DNA of 64,000 nucleotides from Escherichia coli. GTDB lineage: Bacteria; Pseudomonadota; Gammaproteobacteria; Enterobacterales; Enterobacteriaceae. The notes below the pieces were generated by a model. The model saw nothing but the letters and a program-made list of their open reading frames with translations. It was not told the DNA's origin and searched no databases. Below are positions 3,287-17,888 of the stretch, one piece after another. The first letter of the stretch is position 1; each line of letters opens with the position of its first letter. The position numbers and the translations under genes were made by a program. The stretch is from NCBI RefSeq assembly GCF_024700885.2, contig NZ_CP117016.1; one strand, 5' to 3'.

Positions 3287-5085
3287 TAGTAGACATCTCG
3301 CTGATAACGGCGCTCTACGCGCAGCTCACTTAAAAATTCATCCGCCGCTTCGGTGTCCATGCCACCAAATTCGGCAATCACTTCCAGAAGTGCCTGCTCA
3401 ACGTCTTTCGCCATGCGATTAGCGTCGCCGCAGACATAAATGTGGGCACCGTCATTGATCCAGCGCCACAGCTCCGCGCCCTGTTCGCGCAGTTTGTCTT
3501 GTACATAAACTTTTTCTTTTTGGTCGCGCGACCAGGCAAGATCGATGCGGCTCAATACGCCTTCTTTCACGTAGCGCTGCCACTCCACCTGGTAGAGGAA
3601 ATCTTCCGTAAAGTGCGGGTTGCCAAAGAACAGCCAGTTTTTACCTGGCGCTTCGTCAGCGGCGCGTTGCTGCATAAAGGCGCGGAACGGCGCGATGCCG
3701 GTGCCTGGGCCAATCATAATCACCGGGGTTTCCGGGTTGGCTGGCAGGCGGAAGTTATCGTTATGTTCGATAAAGACGCGGACTTCGCCCTCTTCTTCCA
3801 CGCGATCCGCGAGGAAGCTGGAGGCACCACCGGCACGGGCTCGGCCTTCCACGTCGTAACGCACCACACCAACGGTGACATGTACTTCGTTCTCGACTTC
3901 CGCCTGCGAGGAGGCGATGGAATACAGGCGCGGGGTCAGCGGGCGCAGCAGGTTAATCAGCGCTTCGGCATCCAGTTGCGCCGGAGAGAAACGCACCATG
4001 TCAACAATCGGCGTGGTCGCGGCGTAATGCTGTAACTTCGCTTTATCGCCCACCAGCGGCAGCAGCGTTTCGCTGCGGGTAAGCGTGGCGTAGTTCTCAA
4101 CAATATTCGCGGTGTTGACGGTGAGTTCAAAGTGCCACTGGAGCGCTTCGCTCAGGGTCAGCGTTTTGCCCTCAACGGTGACAGGTTCATCGCCTTTCAG
4201 CCACAGCAGTTCGACAAGTTCTTTCACCAGTGCCGGATCGTTCTGATACCAGATGCCCAGCGCGTCACCCGGCTGATAACGCAGGCCAGAGTCACCTAAG
4301 TCAATTTCGATATGGCGAACGTCTTTTTCAGAGTTACGCCCGGTAATTTTCTGGTTAACCGAAAGGCTCGCCACCAGCGGCGCGTCTTTGCTGTACGGGC
4401 TGGTGTGGATTTCATTTACCGCGCCAGTAGCGACGGATTGCGAAGGTGCCGCGACAGGCGCACGGGACTTCAGAACATCAACCACGCGGGCGCGCCACTC
4501 GCTGGCAGCAGCCTGGTATTCAACGTCGGCATCGACACGGTCGAGCAGGCGTTCACCGCCCAGTTCCGCCAGCTTGCTGTCAAAATCTTTCCCGGACTGG
4601 CAGAAAAATTCATAAGAGCTATCGCCGAGGCTAAACACGGCAAATGCAGTGTTTTCCAGCTTTGGCGCTTTTTTGGAGAACAGGAACTTATGCAGCGCGA
4701 CGGCTTCTTCCGGCGGTTCCCCTTCCCCTTGCGTTGACGTCACCACGATGAGCAGTTTTTCGCTGGCGATTTGTTTGAATTTATAGTCGCCCGCGTTCAC
4801 CAGCTTAACGTTCAGTTTTGCCGCTAATAAATCATCGCGTAATGCTTCAGCAACCCGGCGCGCATTGCCGGTTTGCGAAGCGGAGATAATAGTTATACCC
4901 GGCATTTCTGCGGCGGGCGCAGGCGTCGCTGCAAGCGCTGCAGGCTGCTGGTTGAGTACGCCCCAGAAATAGCCAGAAACCCAGGCAAGCTGGGTGGGAG
5001 TTAAATCGGTCGTGGCCGCCTGAAGGCGTGCCAGTTGCTCCGGGTTCAACGGAAGCAACGCGGAAGGTGGGACCTGTGTCGTCAT
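3286..5085 (-). CDS. cysJ: sulfite reductase flavoprotein (alpha) subunit
   Basis: 599-aa [25 protein letters not shown]...; flavodoxin-like plus FAD/NADPH reductase domains; stop overlaps cysI start. Confidence 0.95.
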
Positions 5086-5400
5086 GCGTCGTTATGTTCC
5101 AGTAAGCAAAGCTGTTTCTGCGCCCTGTCAGCGCCCATAAAACAGAAGAGAAGGTAAGGTTAACGGGGTGAACGGTGTGGATTAAAGACGGGATAGCGAT
5201 AACTAATAACCAAATCGACTAACCTGTTTTAGCAATAGTCTTTAACAACAAAACAGATTAACCAACCCAATGAAAAACAAATGAAATTAGCCAATCATTA
5301 AGATAAATTAGCGATTTTGCGCAACAAAGTCGTTTTAGATAATGCGAAAAAACAGCCTTTCCGGTACTCTACGGCGGTTTTATCGTCCTGTAGAGAAATT

Positions 5401-5766
5401 ATGATGTCCACCACGTTATTTAAAGATTTCACCTTCGAAGCCGCTCACCGCTTACCACACGTCCCGGAAGGGCATAAATGTGGTCGCCTGCACGGGCATT
5501 CCTTTATGGTGCGACTGGAAATTACCGGGGAAGTCGATCCGCATACGGGCTGGATTATCGATTTCGCTGAACTGAAAGCGGCGTTTAAGCCAACTTATGA
5601 GCGCCTCGATCACCATTATCTCAATGATATTCCAGGTCTGGAAAACCCAACCAGCGAAGTTTTAGCAAAATGGATTTGGGATCAGGTTAAACCGGTTGTT
5701 CCGCTGTTAAGTGCGGTTATGGTGAAAGAAACCTGCACCGCAGGTTGCATCTATCGCGGCGAATGA
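5401..5766 (+). CDS. queD: 6-carboxy-5,6,7,8-tetrahydropterin synthase (queuosine pathway)
   Basis: ORF 5317..5766 trimmed to ATG at 5401 (121 aa, [35 protein letters not shown]...); PTPS-family motifs. Confidence 0.9.
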
Positions 5767-5843
5767 TAAGAGTGTGTCGGCGGTCAATTTCCCTTAAGTA
5801 ACGCTATGTTAGGGTGTTGCGCTCTGGATATATGGGGCACGAC

Positions 5844-7115
5844 ATGGAAGACGACTGCGACATTATTATTATCGGTGCCGGCATTGCGGGCACCGCTTGT
5901 GCGTTACGCTGCGCGCGGGCAGGTTTATCCGTTCTGTTACTGGAACGTGCTGAAACCCCTGGCAGCAAAAATCTTTCTGGCGGGCGTTTATACACCCATG
6001 CGCTCGCGGAACTCCTCCCGCAATTTCATCTGACCGCGCCTCTTGAACGACGCATCACTCACGAAAGCCTTTCCCTGTTAACGCCGGATGGCGCAACGAC
6101 GTTTTCCAGCTTACAGCCCGGCGGAGAATCCTGGAGCGTATTACGTGCACGGTTCGATCCGTGGCTGGTTGCCGAAGCCGAAAAAGAAGGTGTCGAATGC
6201 ATCCCTGGTGCGACGGTGGATGCGCTGTATGAAGAAAACGGCAGGGTGTGTGGTGTCATTTGTGGTGACGATATTCTCCGCGCCCGTTATGTGGTGCTGG
6301 CAGAAGGTGCCAACAGCGTCCTGGCTGAGCGTCACGGGTTAGTGACTCGTCCTGCTGGCGAAGCGATGGCGTTGGGGATCAAAGAAGTGCTGGCGCTGGA
6401 AACATCCGCTATTGAAGAACGTTTTCATCTGGAGAATAACGAAGGCGCAGCGTTGCTGTTCAGCGGCGGAATCTGTGATGACTTACCCGGCGGCGCATTT
6501 CTTTATACTAATCAACAAACGCTCTCGTTAGGGATTGTTTGCCCGCTCTCTTCACTTACGCAAAGTCGTGTTCCAGCAAGCGAGCTGCTGGCTCGCTTTA
6601 AAACGCATCCGGCAGTGCACCCGCTTATCAAAAACACGGAATCACTGGAGTATGGTGCGCATCTGGTGCCAGAAGGTGGCTTGCACAGTATGCCAGTGCA
6701 ATACGCCGGTAACGGCTGGCTGCTGGTGGGCGATGCGTTGCGCAGTTGCGTCAATACCGGAATTTCCGTGCGCGGTATGGATATGGCGCTGGCTGGCGCA
6801 CAGGCGGCGGCACAAACGCTGATAAGCGCCTGCCTGCACCGCGAGCCGCAAAATCTGTTTCCGCTTTATCATCACAACGTCGAGCGCAGCCTGCTATGGG
6901 ATGTTCTACAACGTTATCAGCATGTTCCGGCGCTTTTGCAACGACCTGGCTGGTATCGGGCGTGGCCTGCGTTAATGCAGGATATTTCCCGTGATTTATG
7001 GGATCAGGGTGATAAACCTGTTCCGCCGCTGCGCCAGTTATTCTGGCGTCATTTACGTCGTCACGGCCTGTGGCATCTGGCGGGCGATGTTATCAGGAGT
7101 CTGCGATGTCTGTAG
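5844..7115 (+). CDS. ygcN: FAD-dependent oxidoreductase, FixC/ETF-QO-like
   Basis: ORF trimmed to ATG at 5844 (423 aa); N-terminal dinucleotide-binding motif DIIIIGAGIAG. Confidence 0.85.
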   Translation: MEDDCDIIIIGAGIAGTACALRCARAGLSVLLLERAETPGSKNLSGGRLYTHALAELLPQFHLTAPLERRITHESLSLLTPDGATTFSSLQPGGESWSVLRARFDPWLVAEAEKEGVECIPGATVDALYEENGRVCGVICGDDILRARYVVLAEGANSVLAERHGLVTRPAGEAMALGIKEVLALETSAIEERFHLENNEGAALLFSGGICDDLPGGAFLYTNQQTLSLGIVCPLSSLTQSRVPASELLARFKTHPAVHPLIKNTESLEYGAHLVPEGGLHSMPVQYAGNGWLLVGDALRSCVNTGISVRGMDMALAGAQAAAQTLISACLHREPQNLFPLYHHNVERSLLWDVLQRYQHVPALLQRPGWYRAWPALMQDISRDLWDQGDKPVPPLRQLFWRHLRRHGLWHLAGDVIRSLRCL

Positions 7116-7366
7116 CCCGTAATCTCTGGCGCGTTGCCGATGCGCCGCACATTGTTCCGGCTGACTCCGTTGAGCGCCAGACGGTACAACGGTTGATTAA
7201 CGCTTGTCCGGCTGGTCTTTTTTCGCTCACACCGGAAGGTGATTTACGCGTTGATTATCGCGGCTGCCTGGAGTGTGGCACCTGCCGTTTGCTGTGCGAC
7301 GAATCAACACTACAACAGTGGCGCTATCCGCCTTCCGGATTCGGCATCACCTACCGTTTTGGATAA
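7106..7366 (+). CDS. ygcO: ferredoxin-like protein, FixX-like
   Basis: ORF 7070..7366 trimmed to ATG at 7106 (86 aa, MSVARNLWRV...); Cys cluster CLECGTCRLLC; overlaps ygcN end by 10 nt. Confidence 0.8.
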   Translation: MSVARNLWRVADAPHIVPADSVERQTVQRLINACPAGLFSLTPEGDLRVDYRGCLECGTCRLLCDESTLQQWRYPPSGFGITYRFG

Positions 7367-7382
7367 ATAATAAGGATAATTT

Positions 7383-7958
7383 ATGCCCCTCTTACACCTG
7401 CTCCGCCAGAATCCGGTGATTGCTGCCGTTAAAGATAATGCCAGCCTGCAACTGGCAATCGACTCTGAATGCCAGTTTATTTCCGTGTTGTACGGCAATA
7501 TCTGCACCATTAGTCAAATCGTTAAAAAGATTAAAAATGCCGGAAAATATGCTTTTATTCATGTTGATTTGCTGGAAGGCGCGTCAAATAAAGAAGTGGT
7601 GATTCAGTTTTTGAAACTGGTGACAGAGGCGGACGGAATTATCAGTACCAAAGCCTCAATGCTGAAAGCAGCAAGAGCGGAAGGTTTTTTCTGTATTCAT
7701 CGCCTGTTTATTGTTGATTCAATTTCGTTTCACAACATTGATAAGCAAGTTGCGCAATCGAATCCGGATTGTATTGAGATCCTGCCAGGCTGTATGCCCA
7801 AAGTGCTGGGCTGGGTGACGGAGAAAATCCGCCAACCGCTGATTGCTGGCGGGCTGGTGTGCGATGAAGAAGATGCGCGTAATGCGATTAACGCAGGTGT
7901 CGTGGCGCTTTCCACCACGAATACCGGGGTCTGGACGCTAGCGAAAAAATTGCTTTGA
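7383..7958 (+). CDS. ygcP: GlpP-family (glycerol-3-phosphate-responsive type) transcription antiterminator-like protein
   Basis: 191-aa ORF, MPLLHLLRQNPVIAAVKDNASLQLAIDSECQFISVLYG...; AAGGA SD upstream; family assignment by recall. Confidence 0.8.
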   Translation: MPLLHLLRQNPVIAAVKDNASLQLAIDSECQFISVLYGNICTISQIVKKIKNAGKYAFIHVDLLEGASNKEVVIQFLKLVTEADGIISTKASMLKAARAEGFFCIHRLFIVDSISFHNIDKQVAQSNPDCIEILPGCMPKVLGWVTEKIRQPLIAGGLVCDEEDARNAINAGVVALSTTNTGVWTLAKKLL

Positions 7959-7993
7959 CGGGATAATCGTAACGAATTGAATTTGTGTGATTT

Positions 7994-8100
7994 GTAGGCT
8001 GCACGCCACATCCGACATTCAGCGCCTGATGCGACGCTTGACGCGTCTTATCAGGCCTACAAGTCCCCAGCCCAGAACCGTAGGCAGGATCATCCGGCAA
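7994..8100. repeat. REP/BIME cluster between convergent ygcP and ygcQ
   Basis: Contains GCCTGATGCGACGCTTGACGCGTCTTATCAGGCCTAC (8024-8059) plus flanking REP-like GTAGGC palindromes. Confidence 0.7.
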
Positions 8101-8104
8101 CACG

Positions 8105-8965
8105 TTATTGGCAATCTGCGTGAATGTTTGTCACCAGTGCCTCCAGCACCACTTTCCAGTCATCAACCACGCCAACATCTGCCTGTGAAAATACCGCTGC
8201 GCTGGCGTCATGATTAATCGCCACCACAAACTTGCTATTGCGTACGCCCGCCATTAACGCTGCTGCGCCGGAAGCGCCAACAACAATACACACCTCAGGT
8301 GCCAGCAGATGTCCGGAAATACCAATCACTTTTTCAGCATCAACGCCACCGTTCATCACTCGCGCCCGACTGTAGCCCACTTCGGCTCCCAGCTTTTCTG
8401 CCAGCATAGCGATTTCCTGGTTATCTGCCTCTCCGCCCTGCCCCACCACCAGCACCCGTCTGGCTTCAGCTAATGGGTCGCGGGTAACATTTTTCAGGTT
8501 TTCTATGCTAACCAGCCAGTCGGGAAGCGCACCTGGGACAATGTTCAGTTGCTGCATACCAGAGGGCAACGTGGCGTTTTTATCTGCTCCCGCCTGACGT
8601 GCCAGCGAAAGGCATAGCGGGCGTTTTTCTGTTTGCAGCGTCGCCGTTAGCGCATTTCCCCAGTGGGATTTGCGCACGCTTACGGTTGGAATATCTAACG
8701 AAGTCACCTGGCAGATGCTTGCACCATGTAAACGCCAGGCCAGCCGGGTCGACAGTTCATCGCCAAACGTTCCCGGCGGAAAGAGAACAACGTCCGCTGG
8801 CGTTCGCTGCCACTGTTCCACCAGCGCATCCAGCACCTGTTCCGCCACTACGGGCTGAGGTTCAATATGCCAGTGTGCCAGGGTACAACCGCTGAAATCC
8901 TGTTCTGCCAGCCAGCTCGCTATTGCGGCATTCTCCTGATTTATTGTCACAATTGCGATATTCAT
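8105..8965 (-). CDS. ygcQ: electron transfer flavoprotein alpha-subunit-like protein (FixB-like)
   Basis: ORF 8105..8998 trimmed to ATG at 8965 (286 aa, MNIAIVTINQENAAIASWL...). Confidence 0.85.
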   Translation of the reverse strand: MNIAIVTINQENAAIASWLAEQDFSGCTLAHWHIEPQPVVAEQVLDALVEQWQRTPADVVLFPPGTFGDELSTRLAWRLHGASICQVTSLDIPTVSVRKSHWGNALTATLQTEKRPLCLSLARQAGADKNATLPSGMQQLNIVPGALPDWLVSIENLKNVTRDPLAEARRVLVVGQGGEADNQEIAMLAEKLGAEVGYSRARVMNGGVDAEKVIGISGHLLAPEVCIVVGASGAAALMAGVRNSKFVVAINHDASAAVFSQADVGVVDDWKVVLEALVTNIHADCQ

Positions 8966-9741
8966 GGCTGCATCCTTTGGCGTAAATAGTCCTGCCATAG
9001 CTTTTGCGCTTTTTCTGCTACCGTTTGCCCATCAATCAGCGTCGCTCCGCGTTGTTGCTCTGCTCTTGCCAGTTGCAGACACTGCATCGCTGGCGATTCG
9101 GCAGCAACAGTTTTACGGATAATTTCTGCTTTCCCCGCCGCCATACGCTGGCGCATTCCCGGTACTGGCAAGGCCACTTCACCGCACTGACGCACGGCAA
9201 TCACCGCAGGCAAGCGAACCCGGCAACAGCGCAGCCCGTTTTCAGTACGCTGTTCGAGGGTGATAAACGGCGCGTCGAGAGTAAAACGCTCCACCTGGGT
9301 GAAGCAGGGCCAGCCCAGCATTTCCGCCAGCAAAAATGGCGTTTGCCCATTCTGCCCTTCGCTGCTTTGGCAGCCGGTAATTATCAGATCCAGCGGATTC
9401 TGACGCTGCCATTCGGCAATATGGCGAGCGACAAATTCCGGCGCAAAGCGCAGATCTGCCGCCGTCTCCAGCAATACAGCTTCCTCAAACCCAAGCGCCA
9501 TGAGATAGCGCAGCCAGTGCAACGCCCGTTCATCCCCCATGCTCAACGCGGTTAAGGACATCGACGTACCGTTTTTTCTCTGCGCCAACAGCAGCGCGGC
9601 GGCAGCCTGTTCATCAGCACCGAGTAAACTTCGCAGAAGCGAAACATCCGGTCCGCTATTACCCTGAGCCGCCGCCTGCCACTCTTTTTCCGCCAGCATT
9701 CCGGCATCCGGTTCGGCTTTAAACGCTAACAGAATGTTCAT
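8962..9741 (-). CDS. ygcR: electron transfer flavoprotein beta-subunit-like protein (FixA-like)
   Basis: ORF 8962..9747 (GTG-initiated in the track) trimmed to ATG at 9741 (259 aa, MNILLAFKAEPDAG...); stop overlaps ygcQ start by 4 nt. Confidence 0.85.
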   Translation of the reverse strand: MNILLAFKAEPDAGMLAEKEWQAAAQGNSGPDVSLLRSLLGADEQAAAALLLAQRKNGTSMSLTALSMGDERALHWLRYLMALGFEEAVLLETAADLRFAPEFVARHIAEWQRQNPLDLIITGCQSSEGQNGQTPFLLAEMLGWPCFTQVERFTLDAPFITLEQRTENGLRCCRVRLPAVIAVRQCGEVALPVPGMRQRMAAGKAEIIRKTVAAESPAMQCLQLARAEQQRGATLIDGQTVAEKAQKLWQDYLRQRMQP

Positions 9742-11056
9742 TCGCACCTCCTACATTTCCCGCCGCCACCAGCGGGAGTGCTTTGGTTTCTGGTGCCCAT
9801 AGCCAGGTCACAACAAAACCAACCAACAACACTGCCGCCAGGAGCATTAAGGTGACTTGCATTCCCCACTGCGCCAGCACCCACGGCAGCAGGCCAGTAC
9901 TTACCGCCGCCCCCAACCGACTCATGGCGGTGGCAAAACCGACGCCCAGCGAGCGAATGTCAGTAGGAAAACTTTCCGCAGGCAAAATGCCCACCAGATT
10001 ACTGACTGCCGAAATGGTGGTGCTGAAGAGAACAAAAAGCAGCAGCGTTAATGAACTGCCGGAAGGCAAACAAGCCATCACTACCAGCGTTGCCGCCAGC
10101 AGCAAAAAACTTCCCAGCAAAAATTTGCGATGTGCCAGCAGGTGCGTCAGAACTAATCCCAGCAGCGCACCCACAATTAACAACGCATTAAGCATCAGGC
10201 TAGCGGTCAACGCATCTTCCAGACCAATAGTCTGGGCGATAGTTGGCAGCCAGGTATAAATCACAAACCATGGGATTACGAGGCAGACAAAGAAGACGCT
10301 GTTAAACGCCGTGCGCCGCCAGTAGCGCGAAGAGAACAAGGTTTTGATGTGTTTATGGGTCGCCGTTGCCACTTCATCGCCCAGTAAAACATGGGGACCA
10401 AAATAGCGATGCACGATAGCGTGAGCTTCTGCAAAACGCCCCTGCCGCAGTAGCCAGCGTGGCGATTCTGGCGTTCCCCAGCGTAATAACGTAATCAACA
10501 ATGCGGGCAGAGCTGCCGATGCCAGCAGCCAGCGCCAGGCCTCCGGGCTTTCGCTAATAAAGTGATGTCCGGCAATACTTGCCAGCACATAGCCTACGGT
10601 CCACACCACGCTGAATGCGCCCAGCAAAATACCGCGATGGCGGCGCGGAGAAAATTCAGCCAGCAAGGTGTGGCCTACTGAGTAATCGCCTCCCAGACCA
10701 ATGCCGATCAAAATGCGCAGTCCAATAAGATGCTCTGGCGTGGTGGCAAAAAATTGTAAGAACGAAGCGAGCGTAATCAGCAAAAAGCTGAAGGTGAAGA
10801 TTTTTTGCCGACCAATATGGTCGGAGATCCACCCCAAAACCAGGCTACCGATAAACAGGCCAAGTAGCGCCGAGCCGCCAATCATTCCCGCCATAAACGG
10901 CGTCAGTTGCATGGCGGGTGTAAGCTGAATAATGGCGTAACCAATGACGCCGAGAACATAACCGTCGGTCAGGTGCGCGCCGAAAGTGAGCGCAGCAATT
11001 CGACAGTGAAAACGGTTAAGCGGTAAATCATCCATTCGCACCGGTGAAGTGTTCAT
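9719..11056 (-). CDS. ygcS: MFS transporter (sugar-porter type)
   Basis: ORF 9719..11149 trimmed to ATG at 11056 (445 aa, MNTSPVRMDDLPLNRFHCRIA...); multiple hydrophobic spans. Confidence 0.85.
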   Translation of the reverse strand: MNTSPVRMDDLPLNRFHCRIAALTFGAHLTDGYVLGVIGYAIIQLTPAMQLTPFMAGMIGGSALLGLFIGSLVLGWISDHIGRQKIFTFSFLLITLASFLQFFATTPEHLIGLRILIGIGLGGDYSVGHTLLAEFSPRRHRGILLGAFSVVWTVGYVLASIAGHHFISESPEAWRWLLASAALPALLITLLRWGTPESPRWLLRQGRFAEAHAIVHRYFGPHVLLGDEVATATHKHIKTLFSSRYWRRTAFNSVFFVCLVIPWFVIYTWLPTIAQTIGLEDALTASLMLNALLIVGALLGLVLTHLLAHRKFLLGSFLLLAATLVVMACLPSGSSLTLLLFVLFSTTISAVSNLVGILPAESFPTDIRSLGVGFATAMSRLGAAVSTGLLPWVLAQWGMQVTLMLLAAVLLVGFVVTWLWAPETKALPLVAAGNVGGANEHSVSV

Positions 11057-11086
11057 CTTTACCCCTTCATTGTCCGGTAATAAGAA

Positions 11087-11108
11087 CGGCTTCTCGCCTG
11101 AGAAGCCG
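11087..11108 (-). terminator. intercistronic hairpin between ygcU stop and ygcS start (possible partial terminator or processing site)
   Basis: 9-bp stem CGGCTTCTC/GAGAAGCCG with 4-nt loop; on the minus strand followed by UUCUUAUU. Confidence 0.3.
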
Positions 11109-11148
11109 AAAAGGCAACGCCCCTCATAGCGGAACGCTGCCTCACACA

Positions 11149-12603
11149 TTATTTTTCAATCGGATAGATAGTACCCGTATTCATAATGCCGTTAGGATCG
11201 AACTGTTTTTTCAGACCTTCCAGCAACGTCCACGCGCTGCCGTGTTCCAGTTTGCTCCAGTGAACGCGATGTTTACCAATACCGTGGTGGTGCACCATCG
11301 AACCGCCGAGGCGAATGGTTTCTTCGCAGATGATTTTGTTGAGCGGATTGTGGTACTTGTCGATTTCCTCTTCCGGCTTACAGTCGACAACGTTGTAGTC
11401 GTAAACGAAGTACATGTTGGTGCCGTTCTGGTAGCTGTGAGAGGAGTGACCGCCCAGCATGGTGATGTCGTCGGCGTGCGGGAACTCGGTACGAATACGG
11501 TTAATAACGCTTTCGTAGATTTCGTGGATGCAGCTCCAGCAGCCGGACACTTCGGTGGTAAAGCCCATGTTGCCGGTTTTGAGGATCTGCACACGTTCAG
11601 CGGCCACTTTATCCGGCCCCCAGTTCAGGTGATTAAACCAGGTTTCGATCAGCTTGCTGTCCACTCGCTGGCATTGCGGGTAACGTGCCACGATTTCCGC
11701 AATCCCTTCGCCTGTCGCCTTCGCAATGCGAGGGTTACCTTCAGCCATAAAGATCAGCACACATTTACCATCGGCAAAATGGGTGAAGTGTTGGGTGCCA
11801 TCTTCAGCGTCATACAAACGAGCGATCGACGGACGATACCCTTCCACCATGATTTCACGCAGGATGTTGAAGCCGGTTTTCATGTCTTCCAGGATATAGC
11901 CGTAGAAGAGGTTGTTTTCCGGGGTGAACTTAAAGATTTTCACAGTTACTTCAGTGATATAGCACAATGCACCTTCGTTGCCGATGATGATGTGACGAAT
12001 GTCCGGGCCTGCCGCGCGGCGTGGTACGTTTTTAATGCGTGTTACGGTGCCATCAGCCAATACTGCTTCCAGACCAACGACCATATCTTCGATTGCGCCG
12101 TAGAGTGTGGAGAACTGCCCGATACTGCGGGTTGCTACCAGGCCGCCCATCTGCGCCAGCGGCTTTGACTGCGGAGAATGCCCCGTGGTGTAACCTTTTT
12201 CACGCAACGCGTTTTCCAGCACCTCCAGCGGAACGCCACATTGCGCCGTCGCCTGCATATTCTCAATATCAATATTAATGATTTGATTCATGGCGGAGCC
12301 GTCGAGCACCACCGAGTTTTCCACAACGGTTTCCAGCCCACCTTCAGTGGCGGAAGCGCCGGTACGCGGCACACCGTTAATTTTGTGCGCATTCATAAAA
12401 TTCAGCACACGGGAGACTTGTTCTGTGGAACCGAGTTTTACGACCGCTGCCGGAATCGGCAAAGTATAAATACCATGAATATCCGGAAATTTACGAAAAC
12501 GGTCAATACTGTTTTTCTTTAATACTGTTTCATCGGTAATTACGCGATCTGCACCAACAATTTCCTTTAGCTGGTCGACAATCGCTGCGCGAGATAAAGA
12601 CAT
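11149..12603 (-). CDS. ygcU: FAD-linked oxidase (FAD-binding PCMH type; alkyl-DHAP synthase / D-lactate dehydrogenase-like)
   Basis: 484-aa ORF, MSLSRAAIVDQLKEIVGADRVITDETVLKKNS... Confidence 0.85.
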   Translation of the reverse strand: MSLSRAAIVDQLKEIVGADRVITDETVLKKNSIDRFRKFPDIHGIYTLPIPAAVVKLGSTEQVSRVLNFMNAHKINGVPRTGASATEGGLETVVENSVVLDGSAMNQIINIDIENMQATAQCGVPLEVLENALREKGYTTGHSPQSKPLAQMGGLVATRSIGQFSTLYGAIEDMVVGLEAVLADGTVTRIKNVPRRAAGPDIRHIIIGNEGALCYITEVTVKIFKFTPENNLFYGYILEDMKTGFNILREIMVEGYRPSIARLYDAEDGTQHFTHFADGKCVLIFMAEGNPRIAKATGEGIAEIVARYPQCQRVDSKLIETWFNHLNWGPDKVAAERVQILKTGNMGFTTEVSGCWSCIHEIYESVINRIRTEFPHADDITMLGGHSSHSYQNGTNMYFVYDYNVVDCKPEEEIDKYHNPLNKIICEETIRLGGSMVHHHGIGKHRVHWSKLEHGSAWTLLEGLKKQFDPNGIMNTGTIYPIEK

Positions 12604-12672
12604 AGTAATTCCTTCCTGATAATAAAAATGGAATAATCATTAATAAGAGAAAACAGAAACCACCGTTATGGA

Positions 12673-13458
12673 TTAGCGCACTAAATAACCGCCATCGACC
12701 ACTAATAAATGCCCGTTAACATAATTTGAAGCCGGACTTGCGAGGAATACGGCTGCGCCCATTAAATCCTGAGTATCGCCCCAACGGTTTGCCGGAATAT
12801 GATCAAGAACGCGCTGGTTAGTTTCTGGATTACTACGGGTCGCCAGAGTGATATCGGTAGCGTAATATCCCGGGGCAATACCATTCACCTGAATATTATA
12901 TTGACCTAATTCATCGCAATAGGCTTTGGTGAATCCGGCAAGAGCATGTTTAGTGGCAGAATAAGCAGGTGACCATTGTCCACCTAAGTAAGAGAACAAT
13001 GAACAGATATTAATGATTTTACCGCTTTTCTGCGGGATCATAATTTTTGCAGCTTCATAGCTTAACTCGAATGCGGCGGTCAGGTTCACATCAATCATTG
13101 GATCCCAGTCGGCACGACCGAAGTCCAGCACCTTATTCAGCTTACAAATACCGGCATTGTTAACCAGAATATCGACGGTACCGAAACGTTCGCAACAGGC
13201 GGCGATTATCTTCTGCGGCGCGCCTTTTGCGGTGATATCCACCTGCATGAAGTCTACTTCAACACCCTGTTTTTCAATCATTTCCTTTGTTTCGCCGTTA
13301 TCTTTGACGAAGCTTGGAATAAAGATATTTGCGCCTGCTTTGGCCAGCGCCATGGCAAATGCCTGGCCTAAACCGCTATTCCCGCCGGTAACAATTGCGG
13401 TTTTACCTTTCAGGGAGAAAAAATCCATTGAGAACGCATTGAGAGATTCGATTGACAT
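12673..13458 (-). CDS. ygcW: short-chain dehydrogenase/reductase (KduD-like)
   Basis: ORF 12673..13533 trimmed to ATG at 13458 (261 aa, MSIESLNAFSMDFFSLKGKTAIVTGGNSGLG...); Rossmann TGGNSGLG motif; GGAG SD 8 nt upstream. The longer ORF-track N-terminus is encoded by the leader terminator (poly-Phe from the T-run). Confidence 0.85.
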   Translation of the reverse strand: MSIESLNAFSMDFFSLKGKTAIVTGGNSGLGQAFAMALAKAGANIFIPSFVKDNGETKEMIEKQGVEVDFMQVDITAKGAPQKIIAACCERFGTVDILVNNAGICKLNKVLDFGRADWDPMIDVNLTAAFELSYEAAKIMIPQKSGKIINICSLFSYLGGQWSPAYSATKHALAGFTKAYCDELGQYNIQVNGIAPGYYATDITLATRSNPETNQRVLDHIPANRWGDTQDLMGAAVFLASPASNYVNGHLLVVDGGYLVR

Positions 13459-13482
13459 AGTTAGCTCCAATTTCCGTAAGGC

Positions 13483-13530
13483 AAAAAAAAAGAAAGGTAA
13501 CTTCCCCCGCGAGAGGGAAGTTACCTTTCT
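13483..13530 (-). terminator. intrinsic terminator in the 5' leader of ygcW (candidate attenuator)
   Basis: Perfect 16-17 bp stem (13491-13507 / 13514-13530, loop CGCGAG) followed on the minus strand by a run of 8-9 U, ending 24 nt upstream of the ygcW ATG. Confidence 0.6.
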
Positions 13531-13582
13531 CATTATCTCTGGTAACTGGAGATAATTTTTATCATAAGGGCATAATCGCTAA

Positions 13583-13598
13583 TGTGATCGTAATCACA
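13583..13598. promoter_or_regulatory. consensus CRP-binding site TGTGA-N6-TCACA in the ygcW/yqcE divergent region
   Basis: aaTGTGAtcgtaaTCACAgt read directly; both half-sites match consensus perfectly. Confidence 0.55.
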
Positions 13599-13704
13599 GT
13601 GTGATATTCGAATTGTCAAATAATTTTAAAAAGCAGAAGCGTGATTACTCTCACACAACACCACTGCTTTCCATGTTATTTCTTATTGCAATTACTAGAG
13701 ACCT

Positions 13705-13752
13705 GAGAAAAGTAATCCACCTGAAAGGGCGGCTTACTTTTCTCTTTTTTTT
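13705..13752 (+). terminator. intrinsic terminator in the 5' leader of yqcE (candidate attenuator)
   Basis: Perfect 11-bp stem GAGAAAAGTAA / TTACTTTTCTC (18-nt loop) followed by T8 (13745-13752), ending 24 nt upstream of the yqcE ATG. Confidence 0.55.
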
Positions 13753-13776
13753 GTCTATTACAAATGGGAATACGAT

Positions 13777-15054
13777 ATGCAACACAACTCATGTCGCCGT
13801 TGGATAACCCTCGCGATAATTAGTTTTAGCGGCGGCGTTAGTTTCGACCTGGCTTATTTACGTTATATTTATCAAATTCCCATGGCGAAATTTATGGGAT
13901 TCAGCAATACCGAGATAGGTTTAATAATGAGTACCTTTGGTATTGCGGCTATTATTCTTTATGCCCCCAGCGGCGTTATTGCCGATAAATTTTCACACCG
14001 CAAAATGATTACTTCCGCGATGATCATTACCGGATTACTGGGTCTGTTAATGGCAACATATCCACCGCTGTGGGTAATGCTCTGTATTCAGGTCGCCTTT
14101 GCGATAACGACGATTTTAATGCTGTGGTCGGTGTCGATTAAAGCCGCCTCGTTGCTGGGCGATCATAGCGAGCAAGGGAAAATTATGGGCTGGATGGAAG
14201 GGCTGCGCGGCGTCGGTGTAATGTCGCTGGCGGTGTTTACCATGTGGGTCTTTTCTCGCTTTGCACCGGATGACAGCGCCAGCCTGAAAACGGTCATTAT
14301 TATCTATAGTGTGGTTTACATTCTGCTGGGCATTTTGTGTTGGTTTTTTGTTAGCGATAACAACAACCTGCGCAATACCAATAACGAAGAAAAACATTCA
14401 TTCCAGCTTAGCGACATCCTGGCCGTTTTGCGCATCAGAACCACCTGGTATTGCAGCATGGTGATTTTTGGTGTCTTCACCATCTACGCCATTCTGAGTT
14501 ACTCCACCAACTATCTGACCGAAATGTACGGCATGTCGCTGGTGGCGGCGAGCTACATGGGGATTGTGATCAACAAAATCTTCCGCGCGCTGTGCGGCCC
14601 ACTTGGTGGCATTATCACCACCTACAGCAAAGTGAAATCCCCTACCCGCGTGATCCAAATCCTTTCCGTACTCGGCTTGCTGGCGTTAACTGCCCTGCTC
14701 GTCACGAACTCTAACCCGCAATCGGTCGCGATGGGGATTGGCCTGATTTTACTGCTGGGATTCACCTGTTACGCCTCACGCGGGCTGTACTGGGCCTGCC
14801 CTGGCGAAGCGAGAACACCGTCTTACATTATGGGCACCACGGTAGGTATTTGTTCGGTGATTGGATTCCTGCCGGATGTCTTCGTTTACCCGATTATCGG
14901 CTACTGGCAAGACACCCTGCCCGCTGCAGAAGCCTACCGCAATATGTGGCTGATGGGCATGGCGGCGCTTGCCATGGTGATCGTCTTTACCTTTTTGCTG
15001 TTCCAAAAAATTCGTACTGCTGATAGCGCCCCTGCTATGGCTAGCAGCAAGTAA
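13777..15054 (+). CDS. yqcE: MFS transporter
   Basis: 425-aa ORF, MQHNSCRRWITLAIISFSGG...; many hydrophobic spans. Confidence 0.85.
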   Translation: MQHNSCRRWITLAIISFSGGVSFDLAYLRYIYQIPMAKFMGFSNTEIGLIMSTFGIAAIILYAPSGVIADKFSHRKMITSAMIITGLLGLLMATYPPLWVMLCIQVAFAITTILMLWSVSIKAASLLGDHSEQGKIMGWMEGLRGVGVMSLAVFTMWVFSRFAPDDSASLKTVIIIYSVVYILLGILCWFFVSDNNNLRNTNNEEKHSFQLSDILAVLRIRTTWYCSMVIFGVFTIYAILSYSTNYLTEMYGMSLVAASYMGIVINKIFRALCGPLGGIITTYSKVKSPTRVIQILSVLGLLALTALLVTNSNPQSVAMGIGLILLLGFTCYASRGLYWACPGEARTPSYIMGTTVGICSVIGFLPDVFVYPIIGYWQDTLPAAEAYRNMWLMGMAALAMVIVFTFLLFQKIRTADSAPAMASSK

Positions 15055-15080
15055 GTCCAGAAAATTACAGGAGAAAAATC

Positions 15081-16559
15081 ATGTCGAAAAAATACATCAT
15101 AGGGATTGATGGCGGAAGTCAGAGCACAAAAGTGGTGATGTACGATCTGGAAGGTAACGTGGTTTGCGAAGGCAAAGGCTTATTACAGCCGATGCACACG
15201 CCAGATGCCGATACTGCAGAACATCCTGACGACGATTTATGGGCATCATTATGTTTTGCCGGTCACGATTTGATGAGTCAGTTTGCCGGAAATAAAGAAG
15301 ATATTGTCGGTATTGGTCTGGGATCCATCCGTTGCTGCCGTGCGTTATTGAAAGCCGATGGCACGCCAGCTGCGCCGTTGATTAGCTGGCAGGATGCTCG
15401 CGTTACACGCCCTTACGAACATACGAATCCTGACGTGGCATATGTCACCTCTTTTTCGGGTTATCTGACGCATCGCTTAACCGGCGAGTTTAAAGATAAT
15501 ATCGCCAACTATTTTGGTCAGTGGCCGGTGGATTATAAGAGCTGGGCATGGAGCGAAGAGGCTGCGGTAATGGATAAGTTTAATATCCCCCGTCATATGC
15601 TGTTTGATGTGCAAATGCCTGGCACCGTCCTCGGACATATCACACCACAAGCCGCGCTGGCGACACATTTCCCGGCTGGGCTGCCGGTTGTTTGTACCAC
15701 CAGTGATAAACCGGTAGAAGCACTGGGAGCCGGGTTACTGGATGATGAAACTACGGTAATTTCTCTTGGCACTTACATCGCGTTGATGATGAACGGCAAA
15801 GCACTGCCGAAAGATCCGGTAGCGTACTGGCCGATTATGTCTTCTATTCCGCAAACATTGCTGTATGAAGGTTACGGTATCCGCAAAGGCATGTGGACAG
15901 TGAGCTGGCTGCGCGACATGTTAGGCGAGTCGTTAATTCAGGATGCCAAAGCACAGGATCTTTCACCGGAAGATTTGCTCAACAAAAAAGCGTCTTGTGT
16001 GCCGCCTGGCTGTAATGGTCTGATGACGGTGCTGGACTGGCTGACCAATCCGTGGGAACCGTACAAACGCGGGATTATGATCGGCTTTGATTCCAGCATG
16101 GATTACGCATGGATATATCGTTCGATACTGGAAAGCGTGGCGCTGACGCTGAAGAACAATTACGACAATATGTGTAATGAAATGAATCACTTTGCAAAGC
16201 ATGTGATCATTACTGGCGGCGGTTCGAACAGCGATCTGTTTATGCAGATTTTTGCCGACGTGTTCAACCTTCCGGCACGCCGTAACGCCATTAATGGTTG
16301 TGCAAGTCTGGGGGCAGCGATTAATACGGCGGTAGGTCTGGGGCTATACCCGGATTACGCAACGGCTGTCGACAAAATGGTTCGCGTGAAAGATATCTTT
16401 ATGCCTGTTGAGAGCAACGCCAAACGCTACGACGCGATGAATAAAGGCATTTTCAAAGACCTAACCAAGCACACTGATGTGATCCTGAAAAAATCGTATG
16501 AAGTGATGCATGGTGAGCTGGGGAATGAAGATTCGATCCAGAGCTGGTCGAATGCGTAA
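15081..16559 (+). CDS. ygcE: FGGY-family carbohydrate kinase
   Basis: 492-aa ORF, MSKKYIIGIDGGSQSTKVVMYDLEGN...; N-terminal GIDGG sugar-kinase motif. Confidence 0.85.
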   Translation: MSKKYIIGIDGGSQSTKVVMYDLEGNVVCEGKGLLQPMHTPDADTAEHPDDDLWASLCFAGHDLMSQFAGNKEDIVGIGLGSIRCCRALLKADGTPAAPLISWQDARVTRPYEHTNPDVAYVTSFSGYLTHRLTGEFKDNIANYFGQWPVDYKSWAWSEEAAVMDKFNIPRHMLFDVQMPGTVLGHITPQAALATHFPAGLPVVCTTSDKPVEALGAGLLDDETTVISLGTYIALMMNGKALPKDPVAYWPIMSSIPQTLLYEGYGIRKGMWTVSWLRDMLGESLIQDAKAQDLSPEDLLNKKASCVPPGCNGLMTVLDWLTNPWEPYKRGIMIGFDSSMDYAWIYRSILESVALTLKNNYDNMCNEMNHFAKHVIITGGGSNSDLFMQIFADVFNLPARRNAINGCASLGAAINTAVGLGLYPDYATAVDKMVRVKDIFMPVESNAKRYDAMNKGIFKDLTKHTDVILKKSYEVMHGELGNEDSIQSWSNA

Positions 16560-16568
16560 GTGAGGAAG

Positions 16569-16591
16569 GCCGGGCGGGAAACTGCCCGGCC
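16569..16591 (+). terminator. GC-rich stem-loop just downstream of ygcE stop (possible terminator, no U-run)
   Basis: GGCCGGGC-GGGAAACT-GCCCGGCC, 8-bp stem. Confidence 0.4.
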
Positions 16592-16605
16592 TGAACATAC
16601 CTGAA

Positions 16606-16877
16606 TGGTTATCCCCGCTGACGCGGGGAACTCGCCAGTGCCTGGTCATATGTGTAACACCTATCCGGTTTATCCCCGCTCGCGCGGGGAACTCTTGCTG
16701 TATAGAGATTATCGGCGTGGGATTGTCGGTTTATCCCCGCTCGCGCGGGGAACTCGTTTGCGGCTTGCAAACATTTTAATGCGTATTCGGTTTATCCCCG
16801 CTCGCGCGGGGAACTCCCAGCCCGACACAAATAATGCAGCATTGCGCGCGGTTTATCCCCGCTCGCGCGGGGAACTC
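16606..16877 (-). CRISPR. orphan type I-E-like CRISPR array: 5 repeats (29 bp; leader-distal one degenerate, 28 bp) and 4 spacers of 32 bp
   Basis: Repeats at 16606-16633 (degenerate TGGTTATCCCCGCTGACGCGGGGAACTC), 16666-16694, 16727-16755, 16788-16816, 16849-16877, consensus CGGTTTATCCCCGCTCGCGCGGGGAACTC. Spacers: GCCAGTGCCTGGTCATATGTGTAACACCTATC; TTGCTGTATAGAGATTATCGGCGTGGGATTGT; GTTTGCGGCTTGCAAACATTTTAATGCGTATT; CCAGCCCGACACAAATAATGCAGCATTGCGCG. No cas genes in the window. Confidence 0.9.
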
Positions 16878-17040
16878 TCTAAACATAACCTATTATTAAT
16901 TAATGATTTTTTAAGCCAGTCACAATCTACCAACTTTACAGTATCACACAAACAACACATCTATTATGTTAAAGAGCACTTAATCCATTGATTGAAAAGG
17001 TAAATATTTAAAATAACTCTATACAAACTAAAATCTACCA
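16878..17040 (-). other. AT-rich CRISPR leader adjacent to the intact terminal repeat
   Basis: AT-rich sequence abutting the non-degenerate end of the array; extent approximate. Confidence 0.5.
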
Positions 17041-17216
17041 AACTCCGACGTAATAATTTTCACCTCAGAGAAAAATTAACGCCACAGAATTTGTAGAGAA
17101 TGACAATGATTAGTCCGGAATGGGCAAAATGGATGAGTTTTCAGAGGCGACAAAAAATATAAATGAGTGGAAGTCTTTACAGGTTCCACCCATTTATAAC
17201 GCATATAAATGTGTAA

Positions 17217-17888
17217 TCAGGCAATATTTAAATATTTATGTGTTTGCATCGACAAACGCCAGTTACGCGCAATGCAAGTTTCAATGCACAAACGTGTGGC
17301 ATCATCCTTTTGGCTAATCGGCTGCAGTGCAATGACTCGCGGTTTATCATCGGTCAGCGTCGCAAGCAATTCATCCAGTGCTTCGATATCACGTACGCGT
17401 CCAACTGGGTGTTTGATTTCGTTAGCTCGCTCCAGGGCTTGCGACAATACTTCATAACCACCACGCATATTTAGCTTTGGCGACACGGTGACCCAGGTAT
17501 TCGACGTACAACGCACTTCATGAGTACCGCTGGTTTCTATCTGGCAACTGAAACCGTTCTTTTCGAGCAGATCAGTTAGTGGCATCAAGTCATGAATACA
17601 AGGTTCACCACCCGTAATCACCACGTGACGCGCGGTGTATCCCTGACGACCGATGACTGCGAGTAAGTCTTCACTGCTTGCTGCTCCCCACTTATCACTC
17701 TCTTTCGTTTTACCCAGAATGCTGAAAAGGGAAACTTCCCGATCCTCAAGCTTTTCCCATGTGTGTTTGGTGTCGCACCAGGCACAGCCGACCGGGCATC
17801 CCTGTAAACGAATAAAAATGGCGGGAACGCCGGTAAAGTAACCCTCACCTTGCAGGGTCTGGAACATCTCGTTAATCGGGTACTGCAT
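17217..17888 (-). CDS. queE: 7-carboxy-7-deazaguanine synthase (radical SAM, queuosine pathway)
   Basis: 223-aa ORF, MQYPINEMFQTLQGEGYFTGVPAIFIRLQGCPVGCAWCDTK...; radical-SAM Cys motif. Confidence 0.9.
   Translation of the reverse strand: MQYPINEMFQTLQGEGYFTGVPAIFIRLQGCPVGCAWCDTKHTWEKLEDREVSLFSILGKTKESDKWGAASSEDLLAVIGRQGYTARHVVITGGEPCIHDLMPLTDLLEKNGFSCQIETSGTHEVRCTSNTWVTVSPKLNMRGGYEVLSQALERANEIKHPVGRVRDIEALDELLATLTDDKPRVIALQPISQKDDATRLCIETCIARNWRLSMQTHKYLNIA

Follow-up and report, generated by a model that had tools for sequence, protein, structure and literature searches.

What does a block of ten uncharacterised genes in Escherichia coli take up and degrade, and what switches it on? The question is posed by ygcNOP, ygcWUSRQ and yqcE-ygcE, which fill positions 5844-16559 of a 64,000-nucleotide stretch of an E. 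coli chromosome (contig NZ_CP117016.1; this whole stretch is called the window below). The block has already been catalogued as uncharacterised and is among the larger ones in E. coli K-12 without a function; full-text literature searches by gene name and by concept turned up no functional work on any of the ten, and the substrate could be identified neither from that literature nor from gene context. New in the present work are a leader RNA element and its tie to the regulator YgcP, the assignment of YgcU to the alkyl-dihydroxyacetone-phosphate-synthase (AGPS) type, a core of genes conserved across phyla, and betaine-type transporters beside that core.

The reading we favour, with a probability that we put at about 55%, is that these genes form an inducible catabolic system, gated by CRP and by YgcP, which would convert a glycerol-like diol with a charged head group into a product of the dihydroxyacetone phosphate (DHAP) type. 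The cluster is best described as a regulon under CRP and YgcP-antiterminator control, built around a triad of a short-chain dehydrogenase/reductase (SDR), a kinase and an AGPS-like flavoenzyme, with an accessory electron-transfer flavoprotein (ETF) branch. The preliminary description of this DNA had proposed one catabolic-looking system and a check of co-conservation and co-regulation. That proposal gained ground: the core is co-conserved from Enterobacterales to Firmicutes and under purifying selection, and the two large operons have a CRP site and a leader element in common. Co-regulation gained no such support for ygcNOP, which has no leader.

Leader RNA elements and the antiterminator YgcP

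The divergent ygcW and yqcE genes are separated by 318 nt, and each 5' leader in this interval holds a strong intrinsic terminator in the sense orientation. These terminators, likely the target of YgcP, had been overlooked in the preliminary description. In the ygcW leader (13479-13549, minus strand), an upstream GUUACC arm and a AGAGAUAAUGAGAAAG loop precede a perfect 19-bp terminator stem (13490-13531) and a run of nine U, and the leader folds at -42.4 kcal/mol (z -6.7). The yqcE leader (13688-13755, plus strand) consists of an AUUACU arm, a AGAGACCUGAGAAA loop, a terminator and a run of eight U, with a folding z of -3.9. Both are versions of one element of about 70 nt, and both positions are occupied in more than 50 enteric loci (alignment A1). 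Its consensus reads RUUACY, AGAGA-N3-4-GAGAAAR, GUAAY, a variable GC-rich hairpin top, UURCYUUUCUC and a run of eight to nine U.

The upstream RUUACY arm of the element can pair with RGUAAY at the start of the terminator 5' arm, which gives an antiterminator helix of 6-7 bp. This helix is paired in 93.9% of the alignment cells, against 16-55% for slid controls, none of 500 shuffles was as good, and two of its pairs covary (GC 49 / AU 20 and UA 50 / CG 17). The terminator is paired in 87.5% of cells, with 12 pairs altered on both sides. By itself the antiterminator hairpin of yqcE is worth -1.4 kcal/mol, against about -23 to -38 kcal/mol for the folds that contain the terminator, and because it is so weak alone, termination would be the default state and read-through would need a stabilising factor.

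A covariance model built from alignment A1 (R1) has only two matches in the 64-kb window, the ygcW leader at 81.2 bits and the yqcE leader at 76.9 bits; a copy upstream of ygcN was looked for, and none was found. Blastn detected no further copies of the ygcW leader elsewhere in the genome, and an E-value-mode scan of positions 5300-17300 assigned neither leader to an Rfam family, returning naRNA4 and two chance matches. The ygcW leader is unchanged in 4590 of 5063 E. coli genomes, though the whole cluster differs by about 3% from most strains. In keeping with termination by default, a small RNA located 'upstream of yqcE on the same strand' has been detected by RNA-seq and northern blot in MG1655 with no special inducer (PMC4681348). 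At the 5' end of the ygcW leader, a further hairpin (13532-13556, AUUAUCUC...GAGAUAAU) would compete with the antiterminator arm; we rejected it as a part of the switch, as it is Escherichia-specific and absent in Citrobacter, Klebsiella and others. An apparent second element, recognised by eye, lies 5' of ygcU in Hornefia butyriciproducens (L058:9836-9925, plus strand; GUUACG...AGAGAUUCAGAGACGGUAAC..., a hairpin and a U run), and as it falls below the R1 threshold, R1 under-detects divergent copies.

These leaders bear directly on the sceptical view that the cluster is a cryptic or decaying leftover, in which gene adjacency would be historical, the ten genes would not serve one shared function in E. 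coli and the hairpins would be ordinary terminators. No phenotype or inducer is reported in the literature, about 7% of complete E. coli genomes do without the cluster and its ETF alpha subunit has no canonical FAD motif, all of which such a leftover could accommodate. However, the hairpins are sense-oriented, come after the promoter and before the start codon, and show covariation with an arm 5' of them, the ygcW leader is kept unchanged in most genomes as stated above, and dN/dS spans 0.012-0.21 across the ten genes. Gene order is also kept across the families of Enterobacterales and the core across phyla, and we consider a decaying leftover very improbable.

The protein candidate for the stabilising factor is encoded within the cluster. 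YgcP (7383-7958, plus strand) belongs to PF04309, G3P_antiterm, with an E-value of 1.6e-62 (residues 12-184 against model positions 1-173 of 173), and matches the GlpP-like structure 3kts of Listeria at 8.5e-28. It is the predicted regulator of both leaders. Outside Enterobacterales, R1 matches 11 of the 11 loci that carry ygcP (L054, L058, L062, L063, L066, L067, L070, L072, L073, L075, L076) and none of the 8 loci that do not (L051, L053, L061, L064, L065, L068, L069, L074), a comparison in which the loci are partly dependent phylogenetically and in which L070-L076 together with L068-L069 were fetched after R1 had been built. The non-enteric matches always lie between promoter-like sequence and a cluster operon, with at least one per ygcP-carrying locus. 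In Serratia microhaemolytica the leader pair is present and ygcP is on another contig.

The parallel with Bacillus subtilis is close in design. There, GlpP bound to glycerol 3-phosphate (G3P) opens a terminator in the 5' untranslated region of glpD, glpFK and glpTQ, and the glpD leader, a proven GlpP target, consists of GGUC, a UGAGAUGAGGAGA loop and GACC opening the terminator arm (PMC9604022). Both regulators are PF04309 proteins, and in both systems a promoter, a short leader and an intrinsic terminator precede the target operons. In the ygc and glpD leaders alike, a short upstream arm can pair with the start of the terminator 5' arm across a purine-rich GAGA...GAGA loop, and in both systems antitermination is joined with catabolite control. 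The two differ in the genes under control, ygcWUSRQ and yqcE-ygcE instead of glpFK, glpD and glpTQ, and in the arms, which are GUUACY/RGUAAC in ygc and GGUC/GACC in glpD. The YgcP-type subfamily is tight, with 54-62% identity between E. coli and Firmicutes and about one third to the Listeria GlpP-like structure, the latter judged by eye. Protein family, terminators, alternative helix and co-occurrence together lead us to read the ygc leaders as most probably the targets of YgcP. Since ygcNOP has no leader, YgcP itself is probably made independently of the switch.

CRP would provide the second gate. Two sites lie between the divergent genes: CRP site 1 (13583-13598) is a perfect TGTGATCGTAATCACA, and CRP-like site 2 (13640-13655, CGTGATTACTCTCACA) has one mismatch and is located about 41 nt 5' of the start of the yqcE leader element. 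A CRP site between ygcW and yqcE was predicted earlier (PMC1794230), a ChIP-seq peak in enterotoxigenic E. coli places CRP at this region in vivo (PMC4287617), the in vitro Kd at site 1 is about 1.7 nM, which ranks with the tightest sites of the genome (PMC12871828), and yqcE-ygcE is listed as Crp-activated (PMC8085971). CRP activates the divergent ygcW and yqcE promoters, as ChIP and footprint data of other groups show. In the model that we propose, by default each transcript would stop at the intrinsic terminator about 70 nt downstream. YgcP, loaded with a phosphorylated intermediate of the pathway, would bind the GAGA...GAGAAA segment of the leader, stabilise the GUUACY/RGUAAC helix and so sequester the 5' arm of the terminator, allowing read-through. 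Our literature search found no description of a GlpP-type mechanism for E. coli or other Proteobacteria. If the model holds, protein-mediated antitermination of this type would be added to E. coli and other Proteobacteria, with a cross-phylum motif not in Rfam, and the leaders could be used as reporters for the true inducer.

A conserved enzyme triad and clues to its substrate

The distribution of the ten proteins, examined by tblastn against 63 loci found through YgcU, separates the core of the system from its accessories. In Escherichia, Citrobacter, Klebsiella spallanzanii, Raoultella and several Enterobacter isolates, as well as in Pluralibacter, Cedecea, Buttiauxella, Yokenella and Mixta, all ten genes stand together between queD and queE, while Serratia, Rahnella, Budvicia and Limnobaculum carry the same ten genes elsewhere in the genome. 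Erwinia, Pantoea, Izhakiella, Ewingella and some Serratia have an ETF-less version (ygcS, ygcP, ygcE, yqcE, ygcW and ygcU), and the position of ygcS differs among Enterobacterales. Nineteen non-enteric loci come from Firmicutes, Negativicutes, Desulfobacterota, SAR324 and Vibrionaceae (L075 and L076 were reached through a YgcP search and not through YgcU). The SDR, the FGGY kinase and YgcU form the invariant set of these non-enteric loci, a GldA-type dehydrogenase replacing the SDR in Enterococcus canis, and none of the 19 contains an aldolase, isomerase, dehydratase or epimerase. The smallest operon, in Thalassobacillus, reads SDR-FGGY-YgcU-BCCT. YgcU orthologues at least 70% identical occur in Firmicutes, Desulfobacterota and Vibrionaceae, and relatives of YqcE about 30% identical are found in Firmicute and Photobacterium clusters.

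YgcU (11149-12603, minus strand) is the central enzyme. The preliminary description had it as a generic FAD-linked oxidase, a label that its nearest relatives and conserved catalytic residues oblige us to replace. Its best solved relatives are AGPS structures (4bby, E 4.9e-40; 2uuu, E 2.4e-38), ahead of glycolate oxidase (1e-25) and LctD (1e-21), and it scores 144 bits to GlcD. Residues R262, Y398 and H438-H440 align with Arg419, Tyr578 and His615-617 of AGPS and are invariant in ten YgcU orthologues of 54-76% identity from five phyla or classes. On these alignments YgcU is an alkyl-DHAP-synthase-like enzyme, as predicted from sequence. It resembles AGPS in its two-domain FAD_binding_4 / FAD-oxidase_C architecture and in the retained catalytic Arg, Tyr and His-His-His; unlike AGPS, it is soluble-sized (484 residues against 658), is encoded in a catabolic, transporter-linked operon, and has no AGPS N-terminal domain of about 150-200 residues, homology starting at AGPS residue ~215 (YgcU residue 60). 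A further difference is that YgcU is translationally coupled to ETF in its relatives, implying a net redox turnover that is foreign to AGPS.

Could YgcU then simply do what AGPS does in eukaryotes? In a biosynthetic module of the ether-lipid type, YgcU and the SDR would correspond to eukaryotic AGPS and acyl/alkyl-DHAP reductase, the other genes being accessory. An SDR is indeed the partner enzyme of AGPS in the eukaryotic ether-lipid pathway, YgcU keeps the catalytic residues just described, and in the locus of a Syntrophomonadaceae genome two PlsC-like acyltransferase genes lie 5' of ygcP. Yet the operons are CRP-activated and inducible by antitermination, uptake transporters and a kinase are always linked to the triad, the N-terminal region of AGPS is missing from YgcU, and ether lipids are not known from E. 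coli. Of the explanations considered here, we find a biosynthetic role the least probable. If our preferred catabolic reading is true, it would give a degradative role to an enzyme family that has been associated with ether-lipid synthesis alone.

The other two members of the triad narrow the chemistry. YgcW (12673-13458, minus strand) is a KduD / gluconate-5-dehydrogenase-like SDR that comes close to, and stays below, the corresponding cut-offs (351.3 bits against 369 for KduD, PRK06935; 276 against 339 for TIGR01832) and matches structure 4z9y at 1.7e-58. In KduD and gluconate 5-dehydrogenases, the group that is oxidised is a secondary alcohol adjoining a terminal CH2OH (R-CHOH-CH2OH). YgcE (15081-16559, plus strand) is an FGGY-family kinase below all the cut-offs of its family (XylB 142 against 380 bits, LsrK 140 against 528, GlpK 99.9 against 590); its nearest characterised relative is the autoinducer-2 kinase LsrK (5ya0, E 3.2e-30), followed by glycerol kinases. 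YgcE comes in two kinds (compare L061 with L032-L055): the E. coli type is conserved at 80-90% identity among Enterobacteriaceae and at 72% in a metagenome-assembled Clostridiales genome, and the kinase of Serratia, Rahnella, Erwinia and Pantoea is about 47% identical to YgcE, though YgcU, YgcW and YqcE are 75-87% identical there, which suggests kinase replacement or fast divergence. Uptake may involve YqcE (13777-15054, plus strand), a major facilitator superfamily (MFS) transporter whose best, distant match is the D-galactonate transporter family of anion:cation symporters, and YgcS (9719-11056, minus strand), an MFS transporter resembling sugar porters and aromatic-acid:H+ symporters.

Several of these matches could be read as a pathway for a sugar acid or ketose, its substrate being for example a tetritol or an aldonate-like compound of the 2-keto-3-deoxy or 5-keto kind, in which YgcW oxidises, YgcE phosphorylates and YgcU with ETF acts as a GlcD-type hydroxy-acid dehydrogenase. 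YgcW lies just under the KduD cut-off (351 vs 369 bits), YqcE has its best match among D-galactonate transporters, YgcU also matches GlcD (144 bits), and LctD-type dehydrogenases work with ETF. However, such a pathway finds no dehydratase, aldolase, isomerase or epimerase in any of the 19 distant loci, YgcU is nearer to AGPS (5e-40) than to GlcD or LctD (1e-25, 1e-21) and keeps the His-His-His loop, the regulator is of the G3P type, and betaine-type transporters belong to the regulon. A sugar-acid route seems to us quite unlikely on this balance.

A second route for glycerol and G3P is the other candidate, with YgcE as glycerol kinase, YgcU plus ETF as a G3P dehydrogenase feeding quinone through YgcN/YgcO, YgcW as a glycerol or dihydroxyacetone dehydrogenase and YgcP sensing G3P. 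This scheme draws on the G3P-responsive family of YgcP, on the resemblance of the leaders to that of glpD, on the glycerol kinases among the nearest solved relatives of YgcE, on the gldA-ygcP-FGGY-ygcU order of Enterococcus canis and one relative adjoining a GlpD-like gene, and on the fact that the G3P/DHAP couple typically needs a flavoprotein. It is difficult to reconcile with a YgcE score so far below the GlpK cut-off, with regulon transporters that are BCCT, OpuA or MFS and never GlpF, with an SDR that is invariably present and would be superfluous, and with the retention in YgcU of the AGPS residues for chemistry at C1 of DHAP. To our knowledge, moreover, glpK and glpD mutants of E. coli are not rescued by the ygc cluster. 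We hold a glycerol/G3P route to be unlikely, slightly less so than the sugar-acid route.

Among known kinase-flavoprotein pathways, GlpK/GlpD for glycerol and EryA/EryB for erythritol in Brucella likewise combine an FGGY kinase, which yields a polyol phosphate, with a flavoprotein that oxidises this phosphate and is linked to the respiratory chain. The ygc flavoprotein, in contrast, is of the VAO/AGPS family and not GlpD-like (DAO), the kinase is nearest to LsrK, the SDR is obligatory and there are no downstream isomerases. A regulator of the G3P family, three enzymes that suffice by themselves and a flavoenzyme for chemistry at DHAP C1 suggest a glycerol-like three-carbon end of the substrate.

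The head group is suggested by the neighbours of the triad in other bacteria. Quaternary-ammonium-type genes stand beside it in 13 of the 19 non-enteric loci: BCCT transporters (L051, L058, L062, L065, L066, L067, L072, L076), OpuA-type ABC systems (L070, L073, L075), with an additional OpuAC/OsmF-like binding protein in L065, and MttB-family methyltransferases (L068, L069). In seven loci the BCCT or OpuA gene either comes immediately after an R1 element or is part of the operon of the triad, so the transporter belongs to the regulon. E. coli proteins share 54-78% (YgcU), 61-78% (YgcW) and 39-60% (YgcP) identity with those of loci that carry such genes, and from this high identity the same chemistry probably operates in E. 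coli despite its MFS carriers. The absence of aldolase and isomerase, the GlpP-like regulator and the BCCT/OpuA systems in the regulon favour a glycerol-type diol of three carbons that carries an onium-type head group over a sugar or longer polyol. The preliminary idea of a polyol or sugar-like substrate is thus revised, whereas the general idea of a catabolic-looking system holds. The association of the triad with BCCT, OpuA and MttB genes in anaerobes of the gut and the sea hints at a route in choline/betaine-type metabolism, with a bearing on how trimethylamine is formed and on the turnover of marine osmolytes. Glycerophosphocholine-like diesters or deacylated head groups of betaine lipids would fit, as a speculation.

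Other neighbours are inconsistent from locus to locus: a SurE-like phosphatase, genes resembling betaine aldehyde dehydrogenase, class III alcohol dehydrogenase, aspartase and LarA, an aldo-keto reductase and a Fae-like protein. They hint at downstream handling of a released head group, 2-oxoaldehyde or hydroxy acid. In the ETF-less enteric clusters, ygcS is followed by a formaldehyde-activating-enzyme-like protein (TIGR03126, 134.9 bits, above the cut-off of 118) and a YghZ/YdjG-like aldo-keto reductase, with a divergent LysR gene alongside, and in a SAR324 genome the same pair adjoins a BCCT gene (loci for the two arrangements: L033:1332-2889 and 4488-5402; also L047, L050 and L051:5033-7390). 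We rejected these two genes as members of the regulon, as they lie behind no leader element and are accompanied by a LysR regulator of their own.

Assembled into a pathway, our preferred reading would run as follows. The substrate, probably a terminal glycerol-type 1,2-diol with a charged, most likely choline- or betaine-like head group, would enter through YqcE and/or YgcS. YgcW would oxidise the secondary alcohol adjoining the terminal CH2OH, and YgcE would phosphorylate the primary alcohol before or after that step, to give a 1-substituted dihydroxyacetone phosphate. YgcU would then remove the C1 substituent by flavin chemistry of the alkyl-DHAP-synthase type, leaving DHAP, a three-carbon product at the level of glycolysis. 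If the flavin adduct is attacked by water, where AGPS uses an alcohol, it would break down to a 2-oxoaldehyde and leave the flavin reduced, which would explain the coupled ETF; in this oxidative case YgcR/YgcQ (ETF) would re-oxidise the flavin, and YgcN/YgcO would pass the electrons on to the quinone pool. A much bolder version is that YgcW-YgcE-YgcU represents an unrecognised, widespread route that frees glycerol conjugates, among them glycerophosphocholine and the deacylated head groups of betaine lipids, of their head group, with an AGPS-type enzyme run catabolically by attack of water on the flavin-C1 adduct, two electrons passed to a dedicated ETF and a new class of GlpP-family RNA switch common to Proteobacteria and Firmicutes; in this full form we think it rather doubtful.

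The electron-transfer branch

All four components of the ETF chain announced by the preliminary description were detected, an ETF beta, an ETF alpha, a FixC-like and a FixX-like protein, each below its named equivalog cut-off; they do not form part of the invariant core. ygcR (8962-9741, minus strand) encodes the divergent ETF beta / FixA-like subunit and shares 4 nt with ygcQ and 23 nt with ygcS; ygcQ (8105-8965, minus strand) encodes the divergent ETF alpha / FixB-like subunit. YgcN (5844-7115, plus strand) is a FixC/YdiS-like FAD-dependent oxidoreductase of the ETF-quinone-oxidoreductase (ETF-QO) type; its scores against PRK10015 (381 bits) and FixC (365 bits) do not reach the respective cut-offs. 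YgcO (7106-7366, plus strand; 10-nt overlap with ygcN) belongs to the FixX-like ferredoxin family (84 bits) and has five Cys, including C54, C57, C60 and C64. Among the relatives, YgcN/YgcO are found in Enterobacterales only, and etfB-etfA follows ygcU with overlaps of 1-4 nt in 11 of the 19 non-enteric loci.

The alpha subunit is unusual. Where canonical ETF alpha has GxSGxIQHxxG, YgcQ has GASGAAALMAG, and five distant cluster-linked orthologues (L066:12246-13190, L054:12248-13234, L070:11264-12229, L068:11276-12286, L072:11267-12292) are likewise without the Gln-His, having SGAAA[F/L]-type sequences. The cluster-linked ETF alpha may thus be a distinct subfamily with altered or no alpha-flavin binding, to judge from this motif. 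Decay of the ETF genes in E. coli was considered and rejected, given their dN/dS of 0.08-0.21 and the sharing of the odd motif with distant orthologues. In Photobacterium a second, ferredoxin-fused EtfA (L066:15440-16591) keeps SGSIQF. In anaerobic and marine relatives, etfA is followed, often with an overlap of a few nucleotides, by a second and very divergent FAD_binding_4/FAD-oxidase_C protein (L066:13187-14647, L068:12283-13845, L069:9789-11417, L070:12267-13670, L072:12267-13796). This arrangement suggests a four-protein complex of YgcU, EtfB, EtfA and the second FAD-oxidase, in place of which Enterobacterales carry YgcN/YgcO. Identifying the second FAD-oxidase simply as LctD was rejected: LctD is its sole solved relative, but at 1e-12 the match is very weak and uninformative.

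In known systems, an ETF pair with FixC- and FixX-like proteins beside a flavin dehydrogenase is seen in FixABCX (with CaiA) and YdiQRST of E. coli, and a dehydrogenase gene of the VAO/GlcD family lies directly beside etfB and etfA in LctBCD of Acetobacterium woodii. The ygc proteins differ from all three in that their ETF alpha lacks SGxIQH, YgcQ has no ferredoxin domain and their scores are below cut-off. Transfer from ETF to ETF-QO to quinone would still be the most economical reading for E. coli, and it is not a secure one, its sole and indirect backing being the 1-4-nt overlaps of ygcU, etfB and etfA in relatives.

Several points weigh against the catabolic reading that we prefer, and they fall on separate parts of it. 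AGPS catalyses a redox-neutral exchange and requires no ETF; an ETF alpha without its Gln-His contacts to FAD leaves the role of electron carrier insecure; and many relatives that are complete in other respects do without the ETF pair and YgcN/YgcO. E. coli has MFS and not BCCT transporters, and enzyme identity (54-78%) is all that carries the onium head group over to it. Co-regulation of the third transcription unit is unsupported, as ygcNOP has no leader element. The likeness to the glpD leader of B. subtilis comes from a comparison by eye with a single sequence.

The cluster within E. coli and its flanks

Several E. coli chromosomes are 100% identical to the window in the cluster region, and gene coordinates were taken from the RefSeq annotation of one such strain, transferred with a shift of 1157 nt. 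This annotation bears out the ten genes at the coordinates first proposed, and the three transcription units hold as well, since the genes form three strand blocks in which they overlap or are closely spaced. The family labels given to all ten proteins are upheld by NCBIfam, PF04309 and Pfam architecture. None of the ten reaches a curated NCBIfam equivalog cut-off, so the earlier statement that the gene names hint at no substrate, and that none is assigned, is correct.

At least 80% of the region is found in 5060 of 5426 complete E. coli genomes; one example among the roughly 7% without the cluster, H39, keeps 5%. All ten genes are under purifying selection within E. coli, which is strongest in ygcW (dN/dS 0.012), ygcU (0.019) and ygcP (0.030), against 0.08-0.21 for ygcN, ygcO, ygcQ, ygcR, ygcS and yqcE. 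The allele of the window is rare: 30 genomes are at least 99% identical to it, and most E. coli are at about 96.7%. Against the K-12-like locus L071, dS is 0.07-0.27, seemingly a high value between members of one species, though with no baseline measured.

The cluster is flanked by queD upstream and by a CRISPR array followed by queE downstream. The preliminary description had REP (repetitive extragenic palindromic) elements bounding the cluster, which proved wrong: the REP element (7985-8057) sits inside it, in the convergent gap between ygcP and ygcQ, and the queD-ygcN border has none. The REP core is exact at 8024-8038, with an inverted partner at 8042-8056, and the region gives a weak, sub-threshold Rfam match to the REP-derived naRNA4 (29.4 bits). 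The orphan state of the CRISPR array was, by contrast, borne out. The array (16605-16877; five 29-nt repeats at 61-nt spacing, four spacers, type I-E-like) starts 46 nt after ygcE, and the identical strain has no cas genes within 7 kb of it. Between iap and cysH that strain carries a hok/gef gene and no cas genes, which leaves the array without cas genes nearby.

Scattered reports, with no mechanistic link between them, touch single genes of the cluster. ygcR was named a MazF-dependent 'death gene' (PMC2646832), over-expression of ygcS raised the production of nicotinamide mononucleotide from nicotinamide (PMC8601175), and YgcE protein is up under stress by furfural and other inhibitors (PMC8605246). 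In enterohaemorrhagic E. coli, D-serine induced ygcU 1.7-fold, and its deletion had no phenotype (PMC13012123). Mentions of 'ygcO' in a review of PTS-Ntr, the nitrogen-related phosphotransferase system, were discarded as misspellings of ycgO, a different gene.

A last observation concerns the middle of the ygcWUSRQ operon. K-12-like strains annotate a longer ygcS that starts near 11129-11149, and a GC-rich 9-bp hairpin followed by UUCUUAUU (11087-11108, minus strand) lies between ygcU and the start of the short form, within the longer frame of those strains. It could be an internal attenuator between ygcW-ygcU and ygcS-ygcR-ygcQ, or the start of ygcS could be mis-annotated.

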